From Octopus vulgaris (lineage: Eukaryota), in the NCBI GenBank assembly GCA_951406725.2, contig OX597830.1, forward strand, positions 1,116,001 to 1,180,000: a stretch of DNA of 64,000 nt. Direction: 5' to 3'. Each line of letters opens with the position of its first letter. The stretch's first letter is position 1. This document shows positions 4,070 to 51,814 of the stretch, one piece after another. The notes below the pieces were generated by a model. It was given only the letters and a program-made list of their open reading frames with translations, was not told the DNA's origin and did not search any database. The position numbers and the translations under genes are program-made.

Positions 4070-4340
4070 TCAGAAATATTCAATTCTCTATTTCTAAAGA
4101 TATGTACGGAGGTGGGGCGATATAATGGTTGTATACTGTCAACTTAACGTGACAGTAGGGGATTATATCACCGCTGTTTAGCCCTAGGAAGCGTCGACGC
4201 ATCCTGTTGGCTTCGACACACTTACTGCCTCCTTATATATTTACGAAGGGGAGACAAATACCCCCAACAGCTAGGCCAGCATCTAGAGACACGCATGTTT
4301 CAGGGTCCTTGCCCTTCATCGGTCTAGAGTAGCATTAGTG
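4070..4340 (-). mobile_element. Non-coding hammerhead-bearing element B (~270 bp) in (TA)n
   Basis: Unique-sequence island between TA tracts, with an HHR near its 5' end on the minus strand. Confidence 0.7.
4282..4328 (-). ncRNA. Type I hammerhead ribozyme motif (element B), U4C core variant
   Basis: Minus strand reads UCUAGA-CCGAUGA-AGGG caagga CCCU-GAAAC AUGCGU GUC/UCUAGA. It has a 6-bp helix I, a 4-bp helix II, a self-complementary helix III (ACAUGCGUGU) and a GUC cleavage triplet. Confidence 0.85.
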
Positions 4341-5548: not shown

Positions 5549-6647
5549 AAGGAGTCAAATCCAGCCCAGCCAAAGTCAGCAGTGTTGTCCCACAAGGCAC
5601 TGTGTTGGGCCTACTTCTCTTCATCATCTACATAAATGATATTACTGATACCATCAAACACAGTAACATCAGAACCTTCGCTGATGATTCCAAGCTCCAG
5701 AAGGTCATCAATGGCGTGGATGACCGAATAAACCTTCAGTCAGACCTACTGGCTGTTGTCCAATGGGCGGAAAAGAATAACATGTTGCTAAATGAAGACA
5801 AATTCGAACTGATCCACTTTGGAAGGGAGGACGCTCTGAAACACCCATACTCTCTTCCTTCTGGAGAAATTCTCATGGCATACAACAACATCAGAGACCT
5901 GGGAGTAACAGTGGACAACAACATAAGCTGGGCTACACATATAAGCAGCAAAGTTGACATGGCCCGCAGAATGTGTTCCTGGATTCTCAGAACCTTCCAG
6001 TCGAGAGATTCCCACGCTATTATCCTTCTCTTCTCCACTTTTGCCCGACCCCACCTTGAATACTGCTGTCCACTGTGGTCTCCCTACACAAAACAAAATA
6101 TTATGAGAATTGAAGCTCCCCAAAGGTCAATCACAAAAAAGATAGATGGCATGTCAGACCTTGACTACTGGGGTAGACTAGAGAAGCTGAAATTGTATTC
6201 ACTCCAACGAAGCCGTGAACGCTACATTATCTGTATGATGTATATTCCATCAGCACTGTCCGAATGATGTTGGCATCACCTTCAAAATGCATCCAAGGCT
6301 TGGACCACGTGCCATCCGTCCACAACAAAAATCTAAATCGCATCACATAACGACAATACGGCACAAGTACTTCACCTCAATTGGACCCGCTCTCTTCAAC
6401 ATTACACCAGGACACGTCAAAAAAGAAACTGACCACACAAAATTCAAGAAGTCTTTGGACAAATTCCTTCAAACAGTATCGGACAAACCACCCACACCCG
6501 GATATGTCTCCGCAAACAATAACTCTCTGCTCGAACGGGCCTTGGTGCCCAAATCCTGAACTGAAAGACTTCGCCAGGTGGTGCTATTAAGTTAGACATG
6601 GCCTGGGCCAATACTGGCCAAAAACCTTTCTAAGTTATTCTAAGTTA
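5549..6647 (+). mobile_element. 5'-truncated CR1/L2-group LINE (RT C-terminal half + 3' UTR) in (TA)n
   Basis: [36 protein letters not shown] and LKLYSLQR..ERY motifs. 3' tail ggtggtgctattaagttagacatggcc.. ends in (ttctaagtta)x2. Confidence 0.93.
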
Positions 6648-6651
6648 TATA

Positions 6652-6714
<63 letters not shown>

Positions 6715-6808
6715 ATCTATATATATATCTATATATCTATATATCTATATATATCTATATATCTATATATATATATCTATATAAATATATATCTATATAT
6801 ATATATTA

Positions 6809-6879
<71 letters not shown>

Positions 6880-6888
6880 CTATATATA

Positions 6889-7055
<167 letters not shown>

Positions 7056-7064
7056 ATCTATCTA

Positions 7065-7103
<39 letters not shown>

Positions 7104-7118
7104 ATATATCTATCTATA

Positions 7119-7165
<47 letters not shown>

Positions 7166-8370
7166 ACGACGGTGAACAGGTGTGGTCGCCGTTTGTGAGG
7201 CACGCTTTCCCGCAGCTCGTCTCCATGACCGAACTGCAGTCGTGGATCAAAAAGAGGCCGAGGAAGGGCGAATGGCACCGCGAGTGTCGCGTTGCTCTCA
7301 AGCAACTCTGCCGTCCTGGGTCGACCTTAAGTGACTTCAACACAACCAAAGCATTCTATAGGGGTTTAGTGGAGGGGAGGTACGACGACGAGCTCGGGGC
7401 GAACCTGGACGTCGACGAGGAGTACCTGACCCGCCTGTTCAGGACGACTTTCGGGCCAGGGCCCATGGACAACTTCCAGAGATCCCTGGCATGGCAGTGC
7501 TACCGAGAAGCGCTACCCGTTCGGGATAAGCTCTACAGACACGGCTCGAGAAACACGGGGCCGACCTGCCCGAGATGCGGTCAGAGCGACGAAACCGTTC
7601 TGCACGCACTCGTTCAGTGTCCAACAATTTCCGACCTGTGGGCTTATGTCGAACAACTGCTGTCACGTGTGGGACGAGTCGGTTTATCAGCTGAGTCTAT
7701 CGTCAATATTGTCACGCCTCCTTCCTTCAAACGGGAAGGAAGAGCTATTTTCATCATCCTTGTGGCTATGGCGAAAGAATGTATCTGGTGGACGCGTCTG
7801 AAAGGATTGGAGACAAACACTTTCCTCTCTGGTCAATCTCTCATCAACTTCTTCAAGTACCACTTGAAAAGGAAAGTGAGAGTAGAGAGGCAAGTTTTGT
7901 CTAGCGAATGTTTTAAAAAAAGATGGGTGAATGTAGCAAGAATGGCACGTATGAATGACGAAGCCACCTTGAGCATAGTCCTATGAACCCAGAAATCGAA
8001 AACAGAGAGTTGCTTATTTGCAAAAAAAAAAAAAGAAATATAAAATGTGACTTCATTGACCGAGGTTACCGTGGTCTTTTCCGTAGGCTTTTCTTTCCAC
8101 GGGTAAACCTCACCTGTCCTCCCCTTTACACTTCATATTGACATTTCTGTGATAACGATCCCTATTGATCAATTTTTTTTTTTTTTTTTTTTTTCCTCTC
8201 CCCCTTTTTTTTAACACCCCTTTTTTTGTCCTCTTTCTCTCCTTTTACGATCCCTTTTGATCGAAACTCCCCCTTCCTTTTTTTTTTTTTTTTTTAAACC
8301 TTCAAAAGAAAAGCTCTACCTTGTAATTTGTTCTATCTGTGTGCAGCCCTGTGTGGCTAATAAAGAAACA
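7166..8370 (+). mobile_element. 5'-truncated Tx1/L1-clade LINE 3' end (zf-RVT/CCHC region + 3' UTR)
   Basis: ORF 7180-7986 has [16 protein letters not shown] and [18 protein letters not shown], the C-terminal Cys/His motif of L1/Tx1 ORF2. T-rich 3' UTR ends in aataaagaaaca. Flanked by (TATC)n/(TA)n. Confidence 0.88.
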
Positions 8371-8401
8371 TATCTATCTATATATATATATATATATATA
8401 T

Positions 8402-10390
8402 ACTTTGATACTTTGATACTTTGATAGGTTTCGGCCATTATTGGCCCAGGCCATGTCTAACTTAATAGCACCACCTGGTGAAGGATTTCAAGTCAGAATT
8501 TGGGCACTATGGCCCACTCAAGTAGAGAGTTATTGTTTACAGAAACATATCCGGGTGTAGGGGGTTTATCCGGGATTTCTTGAAGGAATCTGTCCAAAGA
8601 CTTCTTGAACCCTATAGGGTCAGTTTCTGTTTTAATGTGTTTTGGTGTAATGTTAAAGAGAGCGGGGCCAATTGAGGTGAAATAATTGTGCCGTATTGTT
8701 GTTGTGAGATGAGAGTGCGATTTTTGTTTTTGGCAGATGGCACGGGGCCCAAGCCTTGGGTGTACCTTAAAGGTGATGCCAACATCATTTGGGCAATGCT
8801 GATGGAATATTTTCCACATCATGCAGATGATGTAGCGCTCACGATGACGTTGGAGAGAATAAAGTTTTAGCTTTTCTAGTCGACCCCAGTAGTCGAGGCC
8901 TGTCATGCCATCTATCTTTTTTGTGATTGCCCTTTGAGGTGCTTCAACTTTTATGATATCATGTGGGGAGACCACAGTGGACAACAGTATTCAAGGTGGG
9001 GTCTGGCAAAAGTGGAGAAGAGAAGGATAATGGTGTGGATATCTCTCGACTGGAAAGTTCTGAGAATCCAGGAACACATTCTGCGGGCCATGTCAACTTT
9101 GGTGTTTATATGAGTGGCCCAGCTTATGTTGTCCACAATTACTCCCAAGTCTCTGATGTTGTTGGACGCCGCGAGAGTTTCACCTGAAGGAAGGGAGTAT
9201 GGGAGTTTCAGGGCATCCTCTTTTCCAAAGTGGATTAACTCAAATTTATCCTCGTTCAGCAGCATATTGTTTTTTTCTGCCCATTGGATAACAGCCAGTA
9301 GATCTGACTGAAGGCATGTCCGGTCACTCGCCTCATTTATGACCTTCTGTAGCTTGGAATCATCTGCAAAGATTTTATGTTGCTGTGCTTGATGATGTCA
9401 TTAATGTCATTAATGTAAATGATGAAAAGAAGTGGGCCCAGCACAGTGCCTTGCGGAACGCCACTACTGACTTTGGCTGGGCTTGATTTTACCCCTTCAA
9501 CTACAACATGTTGAGATCTGTCTGTCAGGAAACACCTGATCCATTTCAGTAACTTTCCAGAGACACCAATGTTGGATAGTTTTTTCAATAGGATCTTGTG
9601 ATCGACCCTGTCGAAGGCCTTACTGAAATCAAGGTAGATGACATCGGTGTTGGAGCCCTCTCCCAAAGCTCTCAAAATGTCCTCAAAGTGATGCAGGAGC
9701 TGCGTTAGGCAGTCCCTTCCATTACGGAACCCATGTTGGTTGGAGATCAGCCGTCTGTTGCTTTCCAGAAATTGGGTTATTCGAGATCTCACCACCCTCT
9801 CAAATACCTTGATGATATGAGAGGTGAGTGAGATCGGACGGTAGTTCACTACAAGGGACTTGTTTCCCTTTTTGAAAACTGGGACAACAGACTGGGACAG
9901 AAGGTTTTTTGGAATATAGCCAGCATCCAGTGAGTTTCTCCACAGATAAGCAAGGGGAGATGCAAGTTGGTGTCGACACACCTTCAGGACACAAGCAGGG
10001 AACCTATCGGTGCCTACTGTTGAATTGTGTTTTATTTCGTTTATCGCCGCTAAGACATCAGGGGCACTAAACGTTATGTCCGATATAGTGTGTTGGGGGT
10101 TGACATCACTGATACAGCCCAGATCGGCCATATCAGGATTGCTGAAAACAAAGCAGTATTGTTTCTGCAGAAAACAGAGCAGTATTGTTTCTGCAGAAAA
10201 CAGAGCAGTATTGTTTCTGCAAGCAGTGTTGTTTCTGCAAGCAGTATTGTTTCTGCAAGCAGTATTGTTTCTGCAGCAGTATTGTTTCTGCAAGCAGTGT
10301 TGTTTCTGCAAGCAGTATTGTTTCTGCAAGCAGTATTGTTTCTGCAAGCAGTGTTGTTTCTGCAAGCAGTATTGTTTCTGCAAGCAGTAT
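8402..10390 (-). mobile_element. 5'-truncated CR1/L2-group LINE (RT domain, frameshifted) in (TA)n
   Basis: [47 protein letters not shown], and C-terminal SLLEW. Tail (atcaaagt)x3. Same family as 5549-6647. Confidence 0.95.
10148..10390. repeat. 18-22 bp tandem minisatellite (agcagtattgtttctgca) at the LINE 5' junction
   Basis: About 12-13 units. The unit equals the LINE's own LQKQYC coding sequence. Confidence 0.9.
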
Positions 10391-10568
10391 TCTATATATA
10401 TATCTATCTATATATATATCTATATATCTATATGTATATATATATATCTATATATCTATATCTATATCTCTATATATATATATACATATATCAATATATA
10501 TCTATATATCTATATCTATCTATATCAATATATATCTATATATCTATATCTATCTATCTATCTATCTA

Positions 10569-10603
<35 letters not shown>

Positions 10604-10924
10604 ATATATATATATATATATATACCTATATCAATATATATCTATATATCTATATCTATATCTATATATATCAATATATCTATATCTATATCTATATATA
10701 TATATCTATATATCTATATATCTATATATATCTATATATCTATATCTGTATATATCTATATATCTATATATCTATATCTATATATATCTATATATCTATA
10801 TCTATATATATATATATATCTATATATCTATATCTCTATATATATATATATATATATCTATATATATATATATATATATATATCTATATCTCTCTCTATA
10901 TATATATATTTATATATCTATATA

Positions 10925-11029
<105 letters not shown>

Positions 11030-11072
11030 ATATATCTATATATATCTATATATCTATATATATATCTATATA

Positions 11073-11126
<54 letters not shown>

Positions 11127-11178
11127 TATCTATATATCTATATATATATCTATATATCTATATAAATATATCTATATA

Positions 11179-11223
<45 letters not shown>

Positions 11224-11328
11224 ATCTATATATCTATATATATATATCTATATATCTATATATATATATCTATATATCTATATATCTATATCTATATATC
11301 TATATATCTATATCTATATATCTATATA

Positions 11329-11489
<161 letters not shown>

Positions 11490-11525
11490 ATATCTATATA
11501 TATATATCTATATATATATATATAT

Positions 11526-12390
11526 CTCCTCACTAAAACAACCATACTCTCTTCCTTCAGGGGAACCGCTCACAGCCTCTAACAATATCAGAGACCTGGG
11601 TGTAATTGTTGATGACGATCTTAGTTGGAGTGCACACATCAACAAGAAGGTCGATACAGCTCGTAGGATGAGTTCCTGGATCTTAAGAACTTTCCGGTCC
11701 AGAGAACAAGGTGTCATCATACCACTTTTTTCATCCTTTGTACGGCCACTTTGAATACTGCTGCCCACTGTGGTCTCCTCACACAAGACAAAACATCTCC
11801 AGAATTGAGTCACCCCAGAGGGCTCTCACTAAACAAATTGAAGGCATGGCTGCTCTCGACTATTGGGATCGCCTTAAAGCCTTGAAACTTTACTCCCTCC
11901 AGCGTCGCCGTGAGCGGTACATCATTTGTACGATGTGGAAAATATACCGCCAACTTTGCCCAAACGACCTAAACATTAGCTTCAAGGTTCATCCGAGACT
12001 TGGACCACGGGCTATACGTCCCCTGCCAAATTCAAGATCACAACATACATGTACACTGCAACATAATTTCTTTTCCTCAACAGGCCCTGCCCTATTTAAC
12101 ATTGTCCCGAGGGAGATCAAAGAGGAAAAGGATCCCATCAACTTCAAACAGAGTCTGGATAGATTCCTTCAAAGAATACCAGACAAGCCACTCATAATTG
12201 GATACAACTCACCCAACAAGAAGTCACTACTTGAACAAAACTGGATACAACTCACCCAACAAGAACTCACTACTTGAACAAAACTTGACTTAAACAGGAT
12301 TCGAATAATCCTATCAGGTGGTGCTATTAAGTTAGACATGGCCTGGACCAATCTCTGGTCGAAACATATCTAAGTTTTATCTAAGTTTTA
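11526..12390 (+). mobile_element. 5'-truncated CR1/L2-group LINE 3' end in (TA)n (sister subfamily)
   Basis: [23 protein letters not shown] and LKLYSLQRRRERY motifs. Same 3' UTR core, tail (atctaagtttt)x2. Confidence 0.92.
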
Positions 12391-12414
12391 TATATATCTA
12401 TATATATATATATA

Positions 12415-12483
<69 letters not shown>

Positions 12484-12536
12484 ATATATATATCTATATA
12501 TCTATATATATATATACATATCTATATATCTATATA

Positions 12537-12615
<79 letters not shown>

Positions 12616-12620
12616 ATATA

Positions 12621-12681
<61 letters not shown>

Positions 12682-12686
12682 ATATA

Positions 12687-14691
12687 TCGATGCTCCTACT
12701 GAACATCAGAGGACTGCAAACACTCAGTAACAGGACAAAGATCCCGTTCCTGAGAGACTTTGTTGCATGCAATCAAGCCTTATGCATAGCACCTACAGAA
12801 ACGCACCTGAAACCGGACATAGCAGATGCGGAGTTACACATACCACAGTATGCTGTACTACGGACCGACAGGAAAGAAAGGAGTCATGGAGGTGTTGCTA
12901 TGTACATCCGTGAGGACCTCACACCCCAGGTCCTCTTGTCATACTCAAACTCGGTGTGTGACACACTAATTGTACATATTAGGCAACTTGATGTAGTTGT
13001 GTGTGCTACATATCGCCCTCCAGATGCCCCAAGCCATGTGGGCAAGTTTGAAGACTGCCTTATAAAAATAGAAGAAATTCTAACCACATTAGAACAACAC
13101 ATAGGTGTGCTTCTTATGGGAGACTTCAATCTGCCCAATGTCAGATGACCCGAGGGCCTTTCTCTCCCAGGAATGACAAGATGTGAACGAGGACAGGCGA
13201 GGTCCCTCCTGAACCTCATCAACATCCTGTACATGGAGCAGGTAATACTCCAACCAAACAGGGCAGGTAACACACTGGATCTCTGCTTCACAAATGACAT
13301 GGATCTCATCCATAATGTGAAAGTGACACCGACACTACTCTCGGATCACAACATGATAGAGCTGACCATGTACGGGCCAAAAGAGAGCACGGACATGCAG
13401 CCTACAAGAAACCCTCAAAATCTTTCCAGCTTGAACTACCATAAGGCAAACTGGAAACAAATTGAGAAAGAGATCCTCAAACAAAACTGGCCTAAATGTC
13501 TCTCCTTACCAGACATCGACGTGAAACTTCAACAATTCATGTCTGTAATGCAAGCCATATGCTACAAATGTGTCCCAGAGAGAAAGGCCACTGTACACAA
13601 GAACAAAATCCCCAGAGAGAGGAAAATTTTAATGAGACGGCGTACGAAATTTTCAAATCGCCTAAATAAACAGATTGAAAGCAGTGAAAATAAAAAGCCT
13701 AAAAATAAAACTGTTGGAAATCGAAAAATGTCTGCAACTCTCCCATGAAAAAGAAAGAGCAGACAAAGAAGCCTGGCTATAGAAAACATAAAATCTAACC
13801 CCAGAGCTTTCTACAGGTATGCCAAAGAAACAGCTACAGTGCACTGTAGAATAGGGCCACTCCTCGAAAAGGATGGCACACTTACAGGAAAACCAATGAG
13901 GGTAAGTGAAATACTGAATGAGCAATTCAAGAGTGTTTTCACTCCACCCCTTGGGCATCTCCAAATCACCAATCCAACTGACTTTTTTACCACTGCAGAT
14001 ATAAAATCAGAGGCGGCGACGATAGATTACATCGATATAAAGGAAGACGATGTAACCAAGGCTATAGATGAAATGAAAACAGACTCAGCTACTGGCCCCG
14101 ATGGATTCCCGGCAATCCTCCTAAAAGCATGTAAGAGAGTCCTAGCAAGACCACTACAGTTACTCTTTCAGAGCTTCCTTGCAGCTGGCAAACTTCCAGG
14201 AAAACTGAAGGAAGGTAAAATATGCCCCATTCATAAAGGAGGTAGCAGAGCGGAAGCCAAGAACTATAGACCTATCTCTCTGACCTCACACATCAGCAAG
14301 GTCATGGAACGAATAGTCAGAAGGAAGCTGATCACCTTCCTTGAAGAGAATGACTTGCTGCCCGACACCCAACATGGTTTCCGACCAGGGAGAAGCTGTT
14401 TAACTCAGCTCCTACAACACTATGACTGGGTGCTGAAACGGCTGCTCAACCACTCAAATGTGGAAGTGATATATCTCGACTTTGCAAAGGCCTTTGATAA
14501 AGTCGATCATGGAATGATATGTCACAAACTGCGTGATCTCAACATAGTTGGAAAACTGGGAGAATGGCTTCATGACTTTCTAAAAGATAGAAATCAGGTG
14601 GTAGTGAAACCAAGTAGCAACACCAAATGGCGGTGCCCCAGCAAGGCCACAGCTCATAAGCTGAAACTAGAATCAATCAATCAATCAATCA

Positions 14692-14695
<4 letters not shown>
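12687..14695 (+). mobile_element. CR1/L2-group LINE ORF2 fragment (APE endonuclease + RT N-half) fused to a short 3' tail
   Basis: [36 protein letters not shown] and SDH (APE). NYRPISLTSH and YLDFAKAFDKVDH (RT). Breaks at ~14605 into tail ggcggtgccccagcaaggccacagctc..gctgaaac(aatc)n. Confidence 0.93.
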
Positions 14696-14744
<49 letters not shown>

Positions 14745-14876
14745 TTATATATACATATATATAGATAGATTTATATATATATATATATATAGATTTATAT
14801 ATATATATATAGATATATATATATATTATATATATAGATATATATATATATTTATATATCTATATATACGTATATA

Positions 14877-14939
<63 letters not shown>

Positions 14940-15945
14940 ATATATATATATATATATATAGATTTGTAGCATATGGCTTGCATTACAGACATGAATTGTT
15001 GAAGTTTCACGTCGATGTCTGGCGAGGAGAGACATTTAGGCCAGTTTTGTTTGAGGATCTCTTTCTCAATTTGTTTCCAGTTTGCCTTATGGTAGTTCAA
15101 GCTGGAAAGATTCTGGGGGTTTCTTGTAGGCTGCATGTCCGTGCTCTCTTTTGGCCCGTACATGGTCAGCTCTATCATGTTGTGATCCGAGTGTAGTGTC
15201 GGTGTCACTTTCACATTATGGATGAGATCCATGTCATTTGTGAAGCAGAGATCCAGTGTGTTACCTGGTTGGTTGGAGTATTACCTGCTCCATGTAAAGG
15301 GTGTTGATGAGGTTCAGGAGGGACCTCGCCTGTCCTCGTTCACATCTTGTCATTCCTGGGAGAGAAAGGCCCTCGGGCAATCTGACATCGGGCAGGTTGA
15401 AGTCTCCCATAAGAAGTACACTTATGTGTTGTTCTAATGTGGTTAGAACTTCTATTTTTATAAGGCAGTCTTCAAACTTGCCCACATGGCTTGGGGCATC
15501 TGGAGGGCGATATGTAGCACACACAACTACATCAAGTTGCCTAATATGTAAAATTAGTGTGTCACACACCGAGTTTGAGTATGACAAGAGGACCTGGGGT
15601 GTGAGGTCCTCACGGATGTACATAGCAACTCCTCCATGACTCCTTTCTTTCCTGTCGGTCCGTAGTACAGCATACTGTGGTATGTGTAAATCCGCATCTG
15701 CTATGTCCGGTTTCAGGTGCGTTTCCGTTAGTGCTATGCATAAGGCTTGATTGCATGCAACAAAATCTCTCAGGAACGGGATTTTTGTCCTGTTACTGAG
15801 TGTTTGCAGTCCTCTGATGTTCAGTAGGAGCATCGAGGTGAGGTGTACGTTGTTGCCGGTGGTGTCCATCCTGGGTCTGTTTGCTGTGGTGGTCTGGTAT
15901 ATAGTGGGTAGTCTCACCTTCGGGCTTGGGTTTGATGAAGCCAGG

Positions 15946-16725
15946 TCAGCTGCTGTACAATCTTTTGTGCCATGCACAAAAAGATTGTTGCTCAGCAGCT
16001 GCCCTTTCGACAACATCATGTTGGTGGTTTGTGGCACGCACAACATCTGCGTACCTCCGCTTTGGGGCAAGTGGTGCGTGGTCCATCCCTTTTCCTTGTG
16101 TTGATGGCTTATCCATCTGCCTCGTGTCTCTGTGGCAGGGTCCCCGATGTGCAAAGCGGCAGCCTGCGCCTTTCTTTCCATGCCAGCAGGAACCTCTCAG
16201 GTAGAACCTACACACCCGTGTGCGCTGTTTGTTTCCTTCTTTTGCGGTTCCACTTCTATTCCTGATTCTTTCACCCTTTGGTCCTGCTTGAGCTTTTCCT
16301 TTAGCTCTACCAGCCCTTCTTTTAGTTCTTCCTCCTCCCTCTACCTCTTCACCGGGTTCTCCGTCTCCATGGCCTTTGCTGCCGGTTGGAGAACTTGCAC
16401 CTGGGTTCACTTCCCGGGCAGGTTTCTCATTCAAAACCTCCTCCCGGGCATCCACAAGGTGGGGGTGACTTCTTTCATCGTCTCCATTCTTGCCATCTTT
16501 GCCCCGCTCGTTCTCAAAGATGGCATCAATTGCGCCAATGTGCGACCGTATAAGCGCATATGAGCGCACGAATTCCCGTCTCTTTCGCTCCATCTGAGCC
16601 GCTGTCCTCTTGTAGCCTTTGCTCTTCAGCGCAGCCGCAATCACTTCGCTAGGGCTATCTCCGTCGGCGCACGTCCATGCTCGTACGAATAAATCTAGTT
16701 CGTCAGGTCTCCATGCTCTGGACAT
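15946..16725 (-). CDS. LINE ORF1 protein, 259 aa: N-terminal Myb/SANT-like (trihelix) domain, charged linker, CCCH zinc finger
   Basis: W-x3-E..F..AW....IA..L...GYKRTAAQMERK...F...Y pattern; CRFYLRGSCWHGKKGAGCRFAH; YADVV motif. Lies directly upstream of the APE ORF. Confidence 0.72.
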   Translation of the reverse strand: MSRAWRPDELDLFVRAWTCADGDSPSEVIAAALKSKGYKRTAAQMERKRREFVRSYALIRSHIGAIDAIFENERGKDGKNGDDERSHPHLVDAREEVLNEKPAREVNPGASSPTGSKGHGDGEPGEEVEGGGRTKRRAGRAKGKAQAGPKGERIRNRSGTAKEGNKQRTRVCRFYLRGSCWHGKKGAGCRFAHRGPCHRDTRQMDKPSTQGKGMDHAPLAPKRRYADVVRATNHQHDVVERAAAEQQSFCAWHKRLYSS

Positions 16726-16784
16726 GCTGGATGATCTGTCTATTTGTTTATCTATCTAACTATGTTCGAGAGAAGACAAGAAGA

Positions 16785-17470
16785 TATTAAGGCTAATTAG
16801 AAGATAGAGTATTTGCAAAAAAAAAAAAAAAAATATTAACAAATATTAAAGTTTGTGGGTAAAAACGTTATTTAATCTTAAGGCTAATTAGGAGATAGAG
16901 TATCTGAAAATATATTAGCAATATTAATATTATATTAGAGTGTGGGTAAAAACGTTATTTAATCTTAAGGCTAGTTAGATGATAGAGTATTATTAATATT
17001 AACAGTATTAATGTTTGTGGGTAAAAACGTTATTTAATATTAGGCTAATTAGGAGATAGAGTATCTGAAAATATGTTAACAATATTACAATTATATTAAG
17101 TGTGGGTAAAAATCGCTATTTAATCTTAAGGCTAATTAGAAGATAGAGTATTCAAAAATATATTAAAGTGTGGGTGAAAAAGTTAAAGTGTGGGTAAAAA
17201 CGTTATTTAATCTTAAGGCTAATTAGAGGATAGAGTATCTGAAAATATATTAACAAATATTTAAAAATGTGGGTAAAATGGCTAATTAGAAAGATATTAG
17301 AATGTGGGTAAAGAATTAGATGTTAAAGTGTGGGTAAAAACGTTGTTTATTCTTAAGGCTAATTAGAAGATAGAGTATCTGAAAAATTATTAACAATGTT
17401 AAACAATATTAAACAGTATTAAACGTTATTTAATCTTAAGGCTAATTAGAAGATGGAGTATCTGAAAGAG
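16785..17470. repeat. Degenerate ~60-95 bp tandem repeat (about 8 units) in the LINE 5' UTR
   Basis: Recurring taaggctaattag(a/g)agatagagtat ... gtgggtaaaaacgttatttaatct. Confidence 0.85.
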
Positions 17471-18203
17471 GAGAGATGGGAGGGTAAGAAAGAGGGGAAA
17501 GATTAATTATCTATCTAAAGTTCGTGAAAGTTCACGTCCATGCATATATACGCACACATATATACATACACGCACACACACATACATACACGTGCACACA
17601 CATACACATATACACAGACGGGGAGAGAAGGAAGGTGGAAAAAAAGAAAGAAAATGAGTGAAAATATATTAAAATATATATATATTTTAAAATGTGAAGA
17701 AAGGGTTATTTAATTCTGAAGCCAATTTCCGCCTTCGAGACAGTTATTTAAATGTAAACAAAACAAAAAATGATGACGATCGTAAAATTTAACGGAGATG
17801 TGGGCTTAAGTTAAATGGAATAAAATAGGATAATAAACAGAATATGAAATAGAAGATGAAAGTGATACTTAATCCAACAATGTGGTCTGGATTTTTCGTG
17901 GTTTACGGGGTTATTTTCCAGGAGATGTTTCTTTTTCCTTCTTCTAGGAGATAAGTTACTTCAGTGGATTTTTTTCCACCATGTGCGTTTTCGGTGAAAA
18001 GAAAAAATTATTACTGTATTTGGCTTCAGGCAAAATATATTACGTTCTTGATTAATATATTTGTAGCCGAAGTGTTGTAGTGGGCTTTATGAGTTGAATT
18101 GGTGACTTTCAGTAGATTATTTCACCGATTTATGCACACTTTCTGCCTTTTTTAAACAGAAAAAAGGCGATACACGACTCTCCCTGTCGGAACCGGAAAT
18201 ACG

Positions 18204-18235
<32 letters not shown>

Positions 18236-18359
18236 TATATATATATATAAATCTATATATATATATACATAAATCTACCTATATATATGTATATATATAT
18301 ATCTACATAAATCTATCTATATATATGTATATATATATATATATAAATCTATCTATCTA

Positions 18360-18412
<53 letters not shown>

Positions 18413-18577
18413 ATATATATATATATCTATCTATATATATATATATATATATATATCTATACATATATATATATATCTATACATATATATCTATACATAT
18501 ATCTGTACATATATATATATATCTATACATATATATATATATCTATACATATATATCTATATCTATATATATATCTA

Positions 18578-18806
<229 letters not shown>

Positions 18807-18886
18807 ATATATATCTATATATCTATATATATCTATATATATATATATATATATATATCTATATATCTATATATCTATATATCTAT

Positions 18887-18971
<85 letters not shown>

Positions 18972-19248
18972 CATATATATCTATATATATATATCTATAT
19001 ATATCTATATATACATATCTATATATATATCTATATATATATCTATATATATCTATCTATATATATATATACACATATATAACTATATATATATATCTAT
19101 ATATATATATCTATATATCTATATATATATATATATATATATATATTCATCTCTCTCTATATATATATCTATATATATATCTATCTATATATCTATCTAT
19201 CTATCTATCTATCTATATATATATATATATATATATATCTATACTATA

Positions 19249-19660
<412 letters not shown>

Positions 19661-19662
<2 letters not shown>

Positions 19663-19991
19663 TTTCATTCACACTTTGAATTTGGTGGTACTGGTCATGC
19701 TTTGGCTCGCTCTGTCACTGAGTTGAGATAATGCCTTCTAGTATCTCAAAATTTAATATACAATTATTCATAATTGTAGTATCCTGCGCCGATGAGAAAA
19801 GAAGTTTGGGTAAGGTAGAATTTTCTAATTCTTATGCTTTCCTAAAACTTGATTTCGAAACGTACGTCCGTAGGTAACTTAAAATTGTATTGATAGATTG
19901 CCGTCATTTCATTATTTCTTTCTTACCTGTCTGTGTTTGCCTTTCAAGTGCTGTGTTTTTACTGAGATCCCCCTTTTAGTAGAAGGAATAG

Positions 19992-19993
<2 letters not shown>
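19661..19993 (+). mobile_element. Non-coding hammerhead-bearing element E (~330 bp) in (TA)n
   Basis: Unique island between TA tracts containing the HHR at 19783-19874. Confidence 0.72.
19783..19874 (+). ncRNA. Type I hammerhead ribozyme motif with ~60-nt extended helix II (element E), U4C core variant
   Basis: CCUGCG-CCGAUGA-GAAA[..aaguuu..agaauu uucu aauucu..aaacuu..]UUUC-GAAAC-GUAC-GUC/CGUAGG. It has a 6-bp helix I and a palindromic helix III (ACGUACGU). Confidence 0.85.
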
Positions 19994-20027
<34 letters not shown>

Positions 20028-20030
<3 letters not shown>

Positions 20031-20929
20031 GACAACAACATGCAGTTTAATGCAGGTAAGTTCCAGGCCCTGCGCTACTGGCACACAAAGGTAAATGACG
20101 TGAAGACTGGATACACTGGTCCAGGAAGAATTGCAATCCCTGAGTCAAAATCAGTGCGTGACCTGGGCATTGACATGAGCAATGATGCATCTTTCCAAAT
20201 GCATATTGCTAATCTGGTGATAAAATGCAGACGGCTAGCTGGATGGATTCTCCGAACTTTCAGAACAAGAGAGAAGGAGACACTGATGGTCCTATGGAAA
20301 ACATTTGTCCTCAGCCGCTTGGACTACTGCTCACAACTTTGGTCACCACACAATATAAAACAAACAGCAGAACTCGAAGCAACTCAGAGAAGCTACACAA
20401 AGAAAATCGTCTCAATGCAAAATGTCAGCTACTGGGAAAGACTGAAGGTATTAAACCTCTTCTCCCTGGAGCGGAGGCGGGAGAGATATGCAGTGATATA
20501 CATCTGGAAAATCCTGGAGGGTCTTGTCCCAAACTTTGGCATTCAAAGTAACTCCAACCGCAGAACGGGCGCCGCTGCGTGGTGCCAAGGATTCCAACAT
20601 CACCATCAAAATACAGGTCCAGATACTGCAACAGCTTGGGTTTCAGAGGACCACAGCTCTTTAACATCCTCCCTAAATGCCTGAGAGACTTACATGGTGT
20701 GGATGTGGGTTTCTTTAAAACTAAACTGGATCTCTTCTTGTTGGGAGTCCCAGATGAACCTACCTCACGACAGGAGACACGGATGCGGGCAGCAGCATCG
20801 AACTCCCTTGTTGATCAAGTGCCACGTATCAGAGGTGGATTCACAAACTAGTGTAGCTCATTCAGCGGTGGTGCCCCAGCATGGCCGCGGCCTTCGGGCT
20901 AAAACATTTTTAAGGATTTAAGGATTTAT
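20028..20929 (+). mobile_element. 5'-truncated CR1/L2-group LINE 3' end in (TA)n (third subfamily)
   Basis: MQFNAGKF, VRDLGI, SRLDYCSQLWSP and FSLERRRERYAVIYIWKILEG motifs. Tail ggtggtgccccagcatggccgc.. (tttaagga)x2. Confidence 0.92.
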
Positions 20930-20958
20930 ATCTATATATATATATCTATATATATACA

Positions 20959-21023
<65 letters not shown>

Positions 21024-21064
21024 ATATCTATATATATATCTATATCTATATATATATCTATATA

Positions 21065-21199
<135 letters not shown>

Positions 21200-21464
21200 A
21201 TATATATATATATCTATATATATCTATATCTATATATATATATATATCTATATCTATCTATATATATATCTATATCTATATCTATATATCTATATATATA
21301 TAGTGACGTATTTTTGCCATTTCAATATGGCTAACCCTAAGGGTGGATGCTACAGTAGTTTTAGCCCCAGGAGGACACACTCCTCCAGCTGGCCATAGAC
21401 ACACTATCTGTGTCCTGTCAGTATTTGCAAGGGAAGTCATCCTTCCCGTCTTCAACTTATGATA

Positions 21465-21509
21465 CACACGGACTCGAGTTTCGAGGTATTGACCTCTCGT
21501 CAGCGTGTG
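21465..21509 (-). ncRNA. Type I hammerhead ribozyme (element F, left arm)
   Basis: Reverse complement of 21645-21689. Confidence 0.9.
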
Positions 21510-21644
21510 ACAATCATAGTTGTCGCCGAGAATTAGATTTCCTTCACAAATACTTATACTTTTTCCAGCGTCCACTGTCGCTGATATTGAAAAAGTATAA
21601 GTATTTGTGAAGGAAATCTAATTCTCGGCGACAACTATGATTGT

Positions 21645-21689
21645 CACACGCTGACGAGAGGTCAATACCTCGAAACTCGAGTCCGTGTG
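21645..21689 (+). ncRNA. Type I hammerhead ribozyme (element F, right arm), fully canonical core
   Basis: CACACG-CUGACGA-GAGG ucaaua CCUC-GAAAC-UCGA-GUC/CGUGUG. Helix I extends through an internal loop (aacuaugau-ugu / u-aucauaaguu; 21633-21700). Confidence 0.92.
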
Positions 21690-21909
21690 TATCATAAGTT
21701 GAAGACGGGAAGGATGACTTCCCTTTGCAAATACTGACAGGACACAGATAGTGTGTCTATGGCCAGCTGGAGGAGTGTGTCCTCCTGGGGCTAAAAACTA
21801 CTGTAGCATCCACCCTTAGGTGTTAGCCATATTGAAATGGCAAAAATACGTCACGATGTGTTACCGCTACTGTATATAACTCACTTTGATATTTATCATT
21901 ATATATATA

Positions 21910-21950
<41 letters not shown>

Positions 21951-21975
21951 CTATATATATATATCTATATATATA

Positions 21976-22014
<39 letters not shown>

Positions 22015-22081
22015 ATATGTATCTATCTATATATATATATATATAAACACACACACAAACACACATATAAATAAGTATATG

Positions 22082-22135
<54 letters not shown>

Positions 22136-50719: not shown

Positions 50720-51380
50720 TAATACGTAGAGTGGATGGATAGTGGGGATGGCTGTATCAATGAAGAGAGAAGGTGGGTAGGTGTAAAGAGAGGAAGTAAG
50801 AGGCAGATGAAGAAAGGCGAGGAAGGTAGTTGAGCTCTTGTGATGCAAAGGAACAAAGAGAAGATTAATTCTTGTTCACGGTGAAGGCGAGAGTCTGGAT
50901 GGCCCCTGTACAAAGATAATCCGAACACAGACAAGTCGTGAATGACCAGTAGAGCGGAAATGGCGTGAGATCGAGGTGTCATTACCGTGTCTGATATTTT
51001 GTAGGTGCTCCGTGAACCGGTCAGCTATATACTGAGAACCGATGTGTTGAGAACCGATGTACAAAGAAAGGCAGAAAGAACAGGAGATATAGTAACTTAC
51101 TTTGCTAAAAGTGCAGGTAAAGGAGTCGGTGATATGTGAGGATGAAGGTTTTGGAGAAGTAGGGTCACGTGCGGTAGCGTAGGCGGGTGCAGGGGAACGA
51201 ATCAGGTTAGGAGGTGGAGTTAGGGAAGAAACTATGGACCAGGAGGTCATGCAATTGTGGGTTTGTTTGAAGGAGGGAAGGTTTAGGCTTGGGAAGATGT
51301 GCGAGGTCGGACTAGAGTCGCAGGTAGGCTCGGAGAAGGATACGTTAGAGGGGCAAATTGGAGGGTAGGTAGGTGAAGGT
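50720..51380 (-). mobile_element. Penelope-like element remnant, GIY-YIG endonuclease region
   Basis: ITDSFTC..SKVSYYISCSFCLSLYIG ... DRFTEHLQNIR...SISRHF...GHS ... RLHREQELIFSL, the PLE-type GIY-YIG pattern. Frameshifted. Confidence 0.85.
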
Positions 51381-51814
51381 ATTTGAACTAAAACTCCGGC
51401 AGGATTTCATCAATTCAGCTGTAATTCTTGTGAAATGTGTCTGTGCAATCAGATTTGGTCAAGAATGCCCAACTGTAAAATCCTTTCCATTACTGGGTCC
51501 GGAGTGATTTACTTTGAAGTTTGTTTTTACAAAAATTGGAGTGAAAAGCCGAAACCTGACGAAGTAATCTCTTGTTTCAGGCTAAAATATGAACCACTGC
51601 GCAAAGCGTAGTTCATTGCTACTTTCGGGTATTTATTGATTTCCTCTATAAATCTGCAGCTATTATTATTATTATTATTATTATAATTATTAATATTATT
51701 ATTATTATCATTATCATTATTATTATCATTATCATTATTATTATTATCATTATTATTATTATTATCATTATTATTATTATTATTATTATTATCATTATTA
51801 TTATTATCATTATC

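Follow-up and report, generated by a model that had tools for sequence, protein, structure and literature searches.

A hammerhead ribozyme in the octopus genome belongs to a protein-less 353-nt retrozyme, probably placed in a (TA)n tract as a truncated, predicted dead end by a Penelope-like reverse transcriptase

What kind of element brings a well-preserved hammerhead ribozyme, twice and on opposite strands, into a microsatellite of Octopus vulgaris? The locus lies in a 64,000-nt stretch of contig OX597830.1 (positions 1,116,001 to 1,180,000), referred to here as the window, and an earlier note had described the motif from its letters. The hammerhead core spans 21645..21689 on the plus strand and satisfies the consensus CUGANGA / GAAA / UH, with three helices and an open helix I. 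Each element that had been described was recovered: all six pairs of helix I (21645-50 with 21684-89), the CUGACGA box at 21651-57, all four pairs of helix II with the hexaloop UCAAUA at 21662-67, a palindromic helix III of only 2 bp (ACUCGAGU, 21675-82), and a GUC that ends at C21683 and supports the predicted cut after that position. The GAA lies at 21672-74. Further helix I pairing was also recovered past the UGU/U internal loop (loop 1), with six plus four distal pairs; this extended hammerhead occupies 21632..21701 (plus strand) and shows compensatory changes among subfamilies. An identical hammerhead is found in the mirror arm at 21465..21509 on the minus strand, with predicted cleavage between 21471 and 21470.

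Both copies match the Rfam model RF00163 over its full length with 32.2 bits (E 4.6e-6), narrowly missing the gathering score of 34 bits, and for this reason a scan of the window at the gathering score returned nothing. The consensus of RF00163 resembles the Schistosoma motif, and a search of the genome with this model gave six matches, belonging to unrelated families (73 candidates scored). Other weak Rfam matches at the locus were rejected as hairpin artefacts of the inverted repeat. The exact 33-nt core of the hammerhead occurs 446 times in the genome and the reversed control pattern 0 times, so the motif is not a chance occurrence, and on its sequence it is a genuine type I hammerhead. The earlier note had further proposed a Schistosoma-like tertiary-contact architecture. 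Residues equivalent to those that the consulted part of PMC2632901 names for the contact between loops 1 and 2 in S. mansoni are indeed present: U21690 at the 5' end of loop 1 and A21667 at the 3' end of loop 2, each invariant in 31/31 aligned copies, and the pyrimidine at the last position (U21644); judging by the aligned copies, these contact residues are retained. The plan is not specific to schistosomes, however, as the sections of PMC4209133 and PMC6155905 that were compared describe it as general for metazoan type I hammerheads. With the Sm-alpha hammerhead, as described in the portion of the literature compared here, the motif shares the type I fold, a 6-bp helix I with internal loop, a 4-bp helix II, a hexaloop ending in AUA, and all three contact positions named above. 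Unlike Sm-alpha, loop 2 starts with U and closes with a U-A rather than a C:A, the sequence of the internal loop differs, and the hammerhead scores below the RF00163 cut-off. The motif itself is ordinary: short tandem repeats with a canonical type I hammerhead occur widely in animals.

The note missed that the hammerhead is one motif of a mobile, non-coding tandem unit of 353 nt. The host genome measures 2.8 Gb and has many TA microsatellites, and the arm of the insertion in the window matches many places in it at 95-100%, often with a 353-nt period. Arrays of the young subfamily reach up to ~6 units. Two hammerheads 353 nt apart were present in 29 of the 78 young insertions sampled, and these could be sources of new copies. 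In older subfamilies, 75-92% alike, a variant flank motif matched 1610 times and a further 973 hammerhead cores were counted; one of their arrays holds nine hammerheads at 352-nt spacing. In a set of 25 distinct hammerheads, a helix II pair appears as AU (12), GC (10) or GU (2), one distal pair of helix I as UA (12) or CG (5), and another as AU (11), GU (7) or GC (6). The covariation score of 0.148 lies above all 500 shuffles (0.109 +/- 0.010) and above the values obtained when the structure was slid (<=0.117), all such scores being inflated by kinship among the copies. Two-sided change was seen in six pairs, a count equalled in 102/500 shuffles. The proximal part of helix I and helix III are almost invariant, and part of helix I is fixed by the search pattern. 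From this comparison of copies, the hammerhead helices are supported by covariation at one pair of helix II and two distal pairs of helix I. Divergence amounts to 23/6893 in the ribozyme and 219/48829 in the rest of the unit, a contrast left unused as evidence because the copies were chosen by their exact core.

The older subfamilies also depart from the young sequence within the ribozyme. In 15/25 distinct hammerheads, all of them from older subfamilies, the base pair of helix II is broken, and a G-C at this pair is confined to the youngest subfamily; the older subfamilies still reached at least 973 copies. Core position 4 is C in several older copies (L206-L235).

In its organization the unit resembles the non-LTR retrozymes of metazoans, for which the compared parts of PMC7229834, PMC7761336 and 10.64898/2026.07.22.740005 describe a short (150-450 nt) non-coding tandem unit with one hammerhead each. 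Shared features are the 353-nt non-coding tandem unit with a GC content under 50%, a single canonical type I hammerhead, a 2-bp helix III with palindromic tetraloop, a strongly self-paired monomer (as a circle, the unit folds far better than shuffles, z -6.2) and co-existing Penelope-like elements. There is no LTR, in that the insertion ends are not direct repeats, and the unit does not code for protein. We found no reverse transcriptase (RT) or nuclease match within the arrays, and no open frame joining RT and GIY-YIG in the unit or in the window insertion; such frames occur in separate families. We are therefore highly confident in assigning the repeat to a metazoan non-LTR retrozyme family. 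TATA-like and CRE-like words near the tail were spotted by eye and rejected as a promoter; none is claimed because the TATA-like word is altered in an older subfamily. In sequencing runs that are only presumed to be RNA, contigs covering the unit closed at 353 nt in 4/8 runs, a closure that tandem DNA and RNA produce alike and from which strand, ends and circles cannot be read. Words of the unit were found in 20 runs with seven organism labels, at shares of 0.61-0.89. The retrozyme family, to judge from these words, may be shared with close relatives of the host.

At the locus itself, the two hammerheads belong to a single 601-bp inverted repeat (21300-21900) within a (TA)n tract and are the arms of one inverted insertion. 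The left arm (21300..21596, minus strand, 297 nt) runs from unit position 228 to 174 and is 5'-truncated, with its 3' end, a short site that we call S, at unit 174 pointing outward into (TA)n. The right arm (21589..21900, plus strand, 312 nt) runs from unit position 259 to 217, is likewise 5'-truncated, and points outward into (TA)n with a 3' end at the long site, L (unit 217). Both arms have in common a microhomology of 8 nt at the inversion junction (21589..21596), and the 43-nt "tail" between S and L is found in the right arm only (21858..21900, plus strand), a hallmark of Penelope-like elements according to the parts of PMC11167929 and PMC8557442 compared. The target tract extends from 20927 to 21302 on the left and, with TC and CA stretches, from 21901 to 22134 on the right. 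The arms are identical over the ribozyme and differ elsewhere by three one-base indels and one terminal substitution over ~266 bases. The earlier note had taken the identity of the copies as a sign of recent insertion. The insertion is young, as family copies differ from the majority by only ~0.45% at non-polymorphic sites, but the identity of the arms reflects their shared origin in one insertion event.

This arrangement has consequences for what the locus can release. Whichever side a transcript enters from, the antisense arm is transcribed first, and in a read-through RNA the active fold is predicted to lie 81 kcal/mol above the ensemble because the arms pair, forming a hairpin of ~270 bp in which the hammerhead is buried. 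With one hammerhead per arm, and each arm shorter than the unit, excision of a 353-nt monomer is impossible. The locus also lacks the two tandem hammerheads by which the section of 10.64898/2026.07.22.740005 consulted defines an active element. On these predictions the locus at 21300-21900 is likely to be a dead end that releases no circle. We also considered whether the hammerhead in the window might be an active cleavage element that is useful to the host. Its core and contact residues are intact, and the right arm alone folds like the isolated motif, so that a transcript starting inside the insertion could cleave; it is, however, one of 446 identical young copies, sits in a microsatellite beside LINE fragments and is buried in any read-through hairpin, and we consider this reading very improbable. 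The LINE fragments (RT and APE-type endonuclease) are dense in 5551-20850 of the window, where (TA)n tracts interrupt them, and the fragment that borders the insertion on its left side corresponds to an almost complete LINE in L174.

To learn how the family inserts, we compiled 78 distinct young insertions, 30 as the best BLAST loci to the window arm and the others by the exact core (contigs C1-C4), merging duplicates by coordinate. Their 3' ends cluster at unit 174 (S) and at 216-221 (L), 43-46 nt apart. Inverted structures with both 3' ends outward make up 42 of the insertions and single arms 36, and none is convergent. Among the inverted insertions, 36 pair one S with one L end, none is SS or LL, and six have one off-site end (binomial p 3e-11 for 36/36 S+L). 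Single insertions end at S in 28/36 cases, and TA-type sequence borders at least one flank in 72/78. The pairing was also seen in young insertions found without the core pattern (n=10; inverted S+L 6/6) and in older insertions (n=45), where 15 inverted cases comprise ten S+L, five L plus another end, and no SS or LL. Over all sets, 52/52 inverted insertions with two canonical ends are S+L, and the insertion in the window obeys the same rule with S on the left and L on the right. The 5' ends are spread over the whole unit and do not pile up at the cut site: 3/128 fall at unit 1-3, one of them an artefact of query length, and 3/79 at unit 1-7. Two pairs of separate insertions, L008 with L025 and L032 with L037, have identical inner junction positions, which suggests recurrent microhomology joins or the duplication of a finished insertion.

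These end statistics rule out a MITE or fold-back DNA transposon that carries a hammerhead in its inverted repeats by chance, a reading to which we now give next to no credence. The locus does look like a 600-bp palindrome in TA repeats, as such a transposon would, but the two ends differ systematically (S vs L), the inner junctions vary, 36/78 insertions have no inverted arm at all, and the arms carry tandem units. The family shows a one-sided tail, an inverted copy with 5' truncation and a microsatellite target, and the same three features, with (TA)n as the target, are marks of Penelope-like elements in the part of PMC8557442 compared. In the sections of PMC11167929 used here, a purified Penelope-like protein cleaves AT-rich DNA on both strands and extends each of them, and the tail is traced to RT starting at two internal sites. 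Mobilisation of the retrozyme family by a Penelope-type mechanism is, in our view, very likely. The likeness extends to endonuclease-positive elements of the Neptune type, which, so far as their published descriptions were compared, likewise form partial tandems with an inverted copy truncated at its 5' end, target (TA)n, start RT at two internal sites, bear a tail at just one end and contain a hammerhead in their repeat. Unlike those elements, whose tail measures 30-40 nt, the unit has no protein, a tail of 43-46 nt and a canonical hammerhead. On the sequence evidence, the unit is not an autonomous Penelope-like element, yet it bears the insertion marks of one. One difference concerns strand choice: with the Anolis protein in vitro, the start sites showed no strand difference in the portion of PMC11167929 consulted, whereas genomic insertions here have one short and one long end. 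This sharpens the puzzle of the Penelope "tail", as start sites that are strand-independent in vitro are paired one per strand in the genome.

Given these marks, the copies might instead be the 5'-truncated ends (pseudo-LTRs) of an autonomous Penelope-like element rather than a separate retrozyme. The end structure matches such elements, and the search for a parent had a defined reach, with 40/2368 candidates scored in the DNA search and ~13,000 Penelope-type candidates examined in part. Against this stand the pure arrays of up to ~6 and 9 units of 352-353 nt, and 5' ends that are spread over the unit and run on into the previous unit. Among ~200 loci bearing the unit, Penelope coding sequence adjoins it only in L005/L246, L083, L191 and L231, of which the first is an inverted chimera and the other three are older diverged elements; in other loci such sequence is distant. 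Candidates with copies 3.2 and 4.9 kb apart were traced to a satellite duplication and a LINE insertion. The hammerhead is, moreover, canonical, whereas Penelope motifs of metazoans are mostly minimal according to the consulted part of PMC4209133. A pseudo-LTR origin of the copies therefore seems quite improbable to us. Of the possible autonomous parents, L061 was set aside as a duplication within a satellite and L166 as a copy interrupted by a LINE. The window itself contains a degenerate GIY-YIG end (50876-51406, minus strand) from an old Neptune-type family that has thousands of candidate copies, and this family was rejected as a parent in view of the absence of similarity to the unit.

If the retrozyme is moved by a Penelope-type enzyme, the source of that enzyme can be sought in the same genome. 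Coding sequence adjoining two of the retrozyme copies pointed to a pair of young Penelope-like families with many identical copies. Family A has an open frame of 811 codons with Pfam matches to RT (E 2.8e-7) and, weakly, to GIY-YIG (E 0.067), and family B an open frame of 784 codons that is 57% identical to it; the cysteine linker of both is presumably that of the Neptune type. Family A targets (TA)n, has a 42-nt tail and shows S+L in 16/18 inverted loci in which both ends were seen, the exceptions being one LL locus and one older SS-like locus. Family B targets (TA)n with a 34-nt tail and shows S+L in 15/16 inverted loci, with one truncated end. Many of the loci of both families were selected because paired hits hinted at inversion. 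A young retrozyme and two young families with open frames thus share a strict end rule and a target, as well as one mixed insertion. In that insertion (L246:4022-6599), a single TA tract holds a family B arm with an L end and a retrozyme arm, joined head to head. The flanks are two halves of one palindromic repeat, the short filler at the junction matches retrozyme sequence, the Penelope arm is 98% like the nearest sampled copy, and the retrozyme arm ends off-site at unit 274. This single chimera indicates that the two arms of an insertion can derive from different RNAs. Because the chimera stands alone and ends off-site on its retrozyme side, we treat family B as the leading candidate rather than as a proven helper, and would put its role as the helper of the retrozyme at a little short of an even chance.

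Sequence comparison did not link the unit to a parent. Against family A there was no blastn hit, and the local score was 89 versus 81 +/- 5 in shuffles; against family B the best hits had E 3.9, one of them mapping L site to L site (16/20). No parent pLTR of the unit was found, and the unit showed no significant similarity to three Penelope-type families. Published accounts of metazoan retrozymes, in the parts compared, infer the helper from co-occurrence and pLTR similarity, whereas here the ends were measured and a pLTR homologue was not found. The fixed ends, inverted arms and (TA)n targeting measured here are absent from those published accounts that we compared. Outside subscription journals, Repbase/Dfam and supplements, we found neither this family nor a paired-end rule for retrozymes described in the literature.

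Several further observations concern the Penelope-like families. The terminal repeats of both A and B contain a hammerhead-like motif with a palindromic helix III, in which U and A replace C3 and G8 in a compensatory swap. In family A (L253, downstream of the frame) it was noticed by eye, and in family B (the unit from L275) it came out of a motif scan. In L191:1455-3022, a retrozyme piece runs from unit 6 to 174, with a short-site end, and is followed on the same strand by a Penelope-like 5' part of an element that is 77-80% like family A, possibly because the template was switched close to the cleavage site. L083 probably represents the insertion of a retrozyme into an older copy of family A, given that the host copy is ~90% like young family A.

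The RNA that serves as template can be approached through variants shared among units. Across 77 insertions (L061 left out), mismatches at seven polymorphic sites were seen in 11/725 comparisons of tandem units and 4/509 of opposite arms, and in 27874/101444 comparisons between different insertions. Private variants were fixed in 5/5 and 6/6 units of two young arrays (L065, L073). Rare variants fixed in all covering units of an insertion numbered 21, and 137 were present in some units only; the latter could stem from later mutation, RT error or sequencing error, and they weaken the signal. Units and arms could also have become alike through gene conversion, or because a single source array dominated at a time. 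Arms often traverse the cleavage site for several units, and the absence of a pile-up of 5' ends at that site argues against a cleaved linear monomer as the template. The shared variants, the read-through of the cut site and the scattered 5' ends would be expected if a ligated monomer were copied round repeatedly. The pattern of variants fits the copying of one RNA circle, and we regard a circular template as the better-supported option with reasonable, though far from full, confidence.

As for cleavage, the note had judged the motif probably active. The canonical fold and the cut site that it described are supported, but fast cleavage of the monomer is uncertain. In the isolated RNA, the active fold is predicted to lie 7.6 kcal/mol above the ensemble, by a model that ignores tertiary contacts, and is not the predicted minimum, with pair probabilities of 0.30 for helix II and 0.0 for helix III. 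The 2-bp helix III and this energy gap are what make fast monomer cleavage uncertain and favour a dimer: helix III costs +2.9 kcal/mol as a monomer hairpin and yields -10.7 as a palindromic duplex, and the predicted cofold of two copies includes the extended helix. From these predictions, cleavage in a dimer context is likely. In the section of PMC7229834 consulted, a comparable axolotl motif cleaved to 22% as a monomer and better as a dimer, and among Xenopus dimers 1/9 cleaved (10.64898/2026.07.22.740005, as far as compared).

The retrozyme could alternatively be copied from long linear read-through RNAs and homogenised at the DNA level, so that the ribozyme would matter little for its spread. 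In keeping with this, insertion by the purified Anolis element was unaffected by hammerhead mutants (PMC11167929, in the part used), the missing 5' ends at the cut site also fit uncleaved multimers, and a weakened helix II or a U4C core did not keep older subfamilies from spreading. The private variants fixed in every unit of L065 and L073 are nevertheless hard to obtain without a monomer step, and the fold is retained with compensatory changes across subfamilies 75-100% alike; copying from linear RNA is, in our assessment, unlikely.

Taken together, we consider it probable that the locus represents a protein-less 353-nt retrozyme whose truncated insertion into (TA)n, predicted to be a dead end, was made by a Penelope-like RT priming twice on what is likely a circle. 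In such a life cycle, tandem arrays elsewhere in the genome, of the kind we observed, would be transcribed. Successive hammerheads would then cut after GUC, probably aided by the pairing of two palindromic helices III, and the released 353-nt monomers would be closed by a host ligase, as we infer from work on coral, mussel and axolotl. A putative Neptune-type protein with RT and GIY-YIG nuclease would cut both strands of (TA)n. One cDNA would start at unit 174 and, in about half of events, a second one on the opposite strand at 217-220. Rolling round the circle would yield arms of 50 to >2000 nt with uniform units, and two 5'-truncated arms would be joined head to head via microhomology. At the window locus, the outcome would be one hammerhead per strand on arms shorter than a unit, transcribed antisense first, from which no monomer would be released.

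A more specific version is offered only tentatively: a Penelope-type dimer with family B as helper may prime both cut (TA)n strands on one circle, short site first. As an equally tentative addition, the cDNAs may roll round the circle and write tandem arms, with the long site used second in a fixed order. The compared parts of PMC7229834 and other papers treat the helper of animal retrozymes as not established and likewise leave open whether the circle is the template. The variant sharing points to a monomer step, and the questions of helper and template become testable with sequences from one genome. If a family B dimer does work on a circle, the agents behind the spread of an animal retrozyme, both enzyme and template, would be named for the first time in the literature searched, and this would provide a two-part system for rebuilding in vitro.

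The window holds one further element of this kind. A second canonical-looking type I hammerhead (4282-4328, minus strand), with CCGAUGA and a 4-bp helix II with hexaloop, lies in an element at ~4080-4340. This element is a TA-flanked single copy of a distantly related repeat; it is 70% identical to the 353-nt unit across 82 nt, and its identity with copies in L073 is ~80%.
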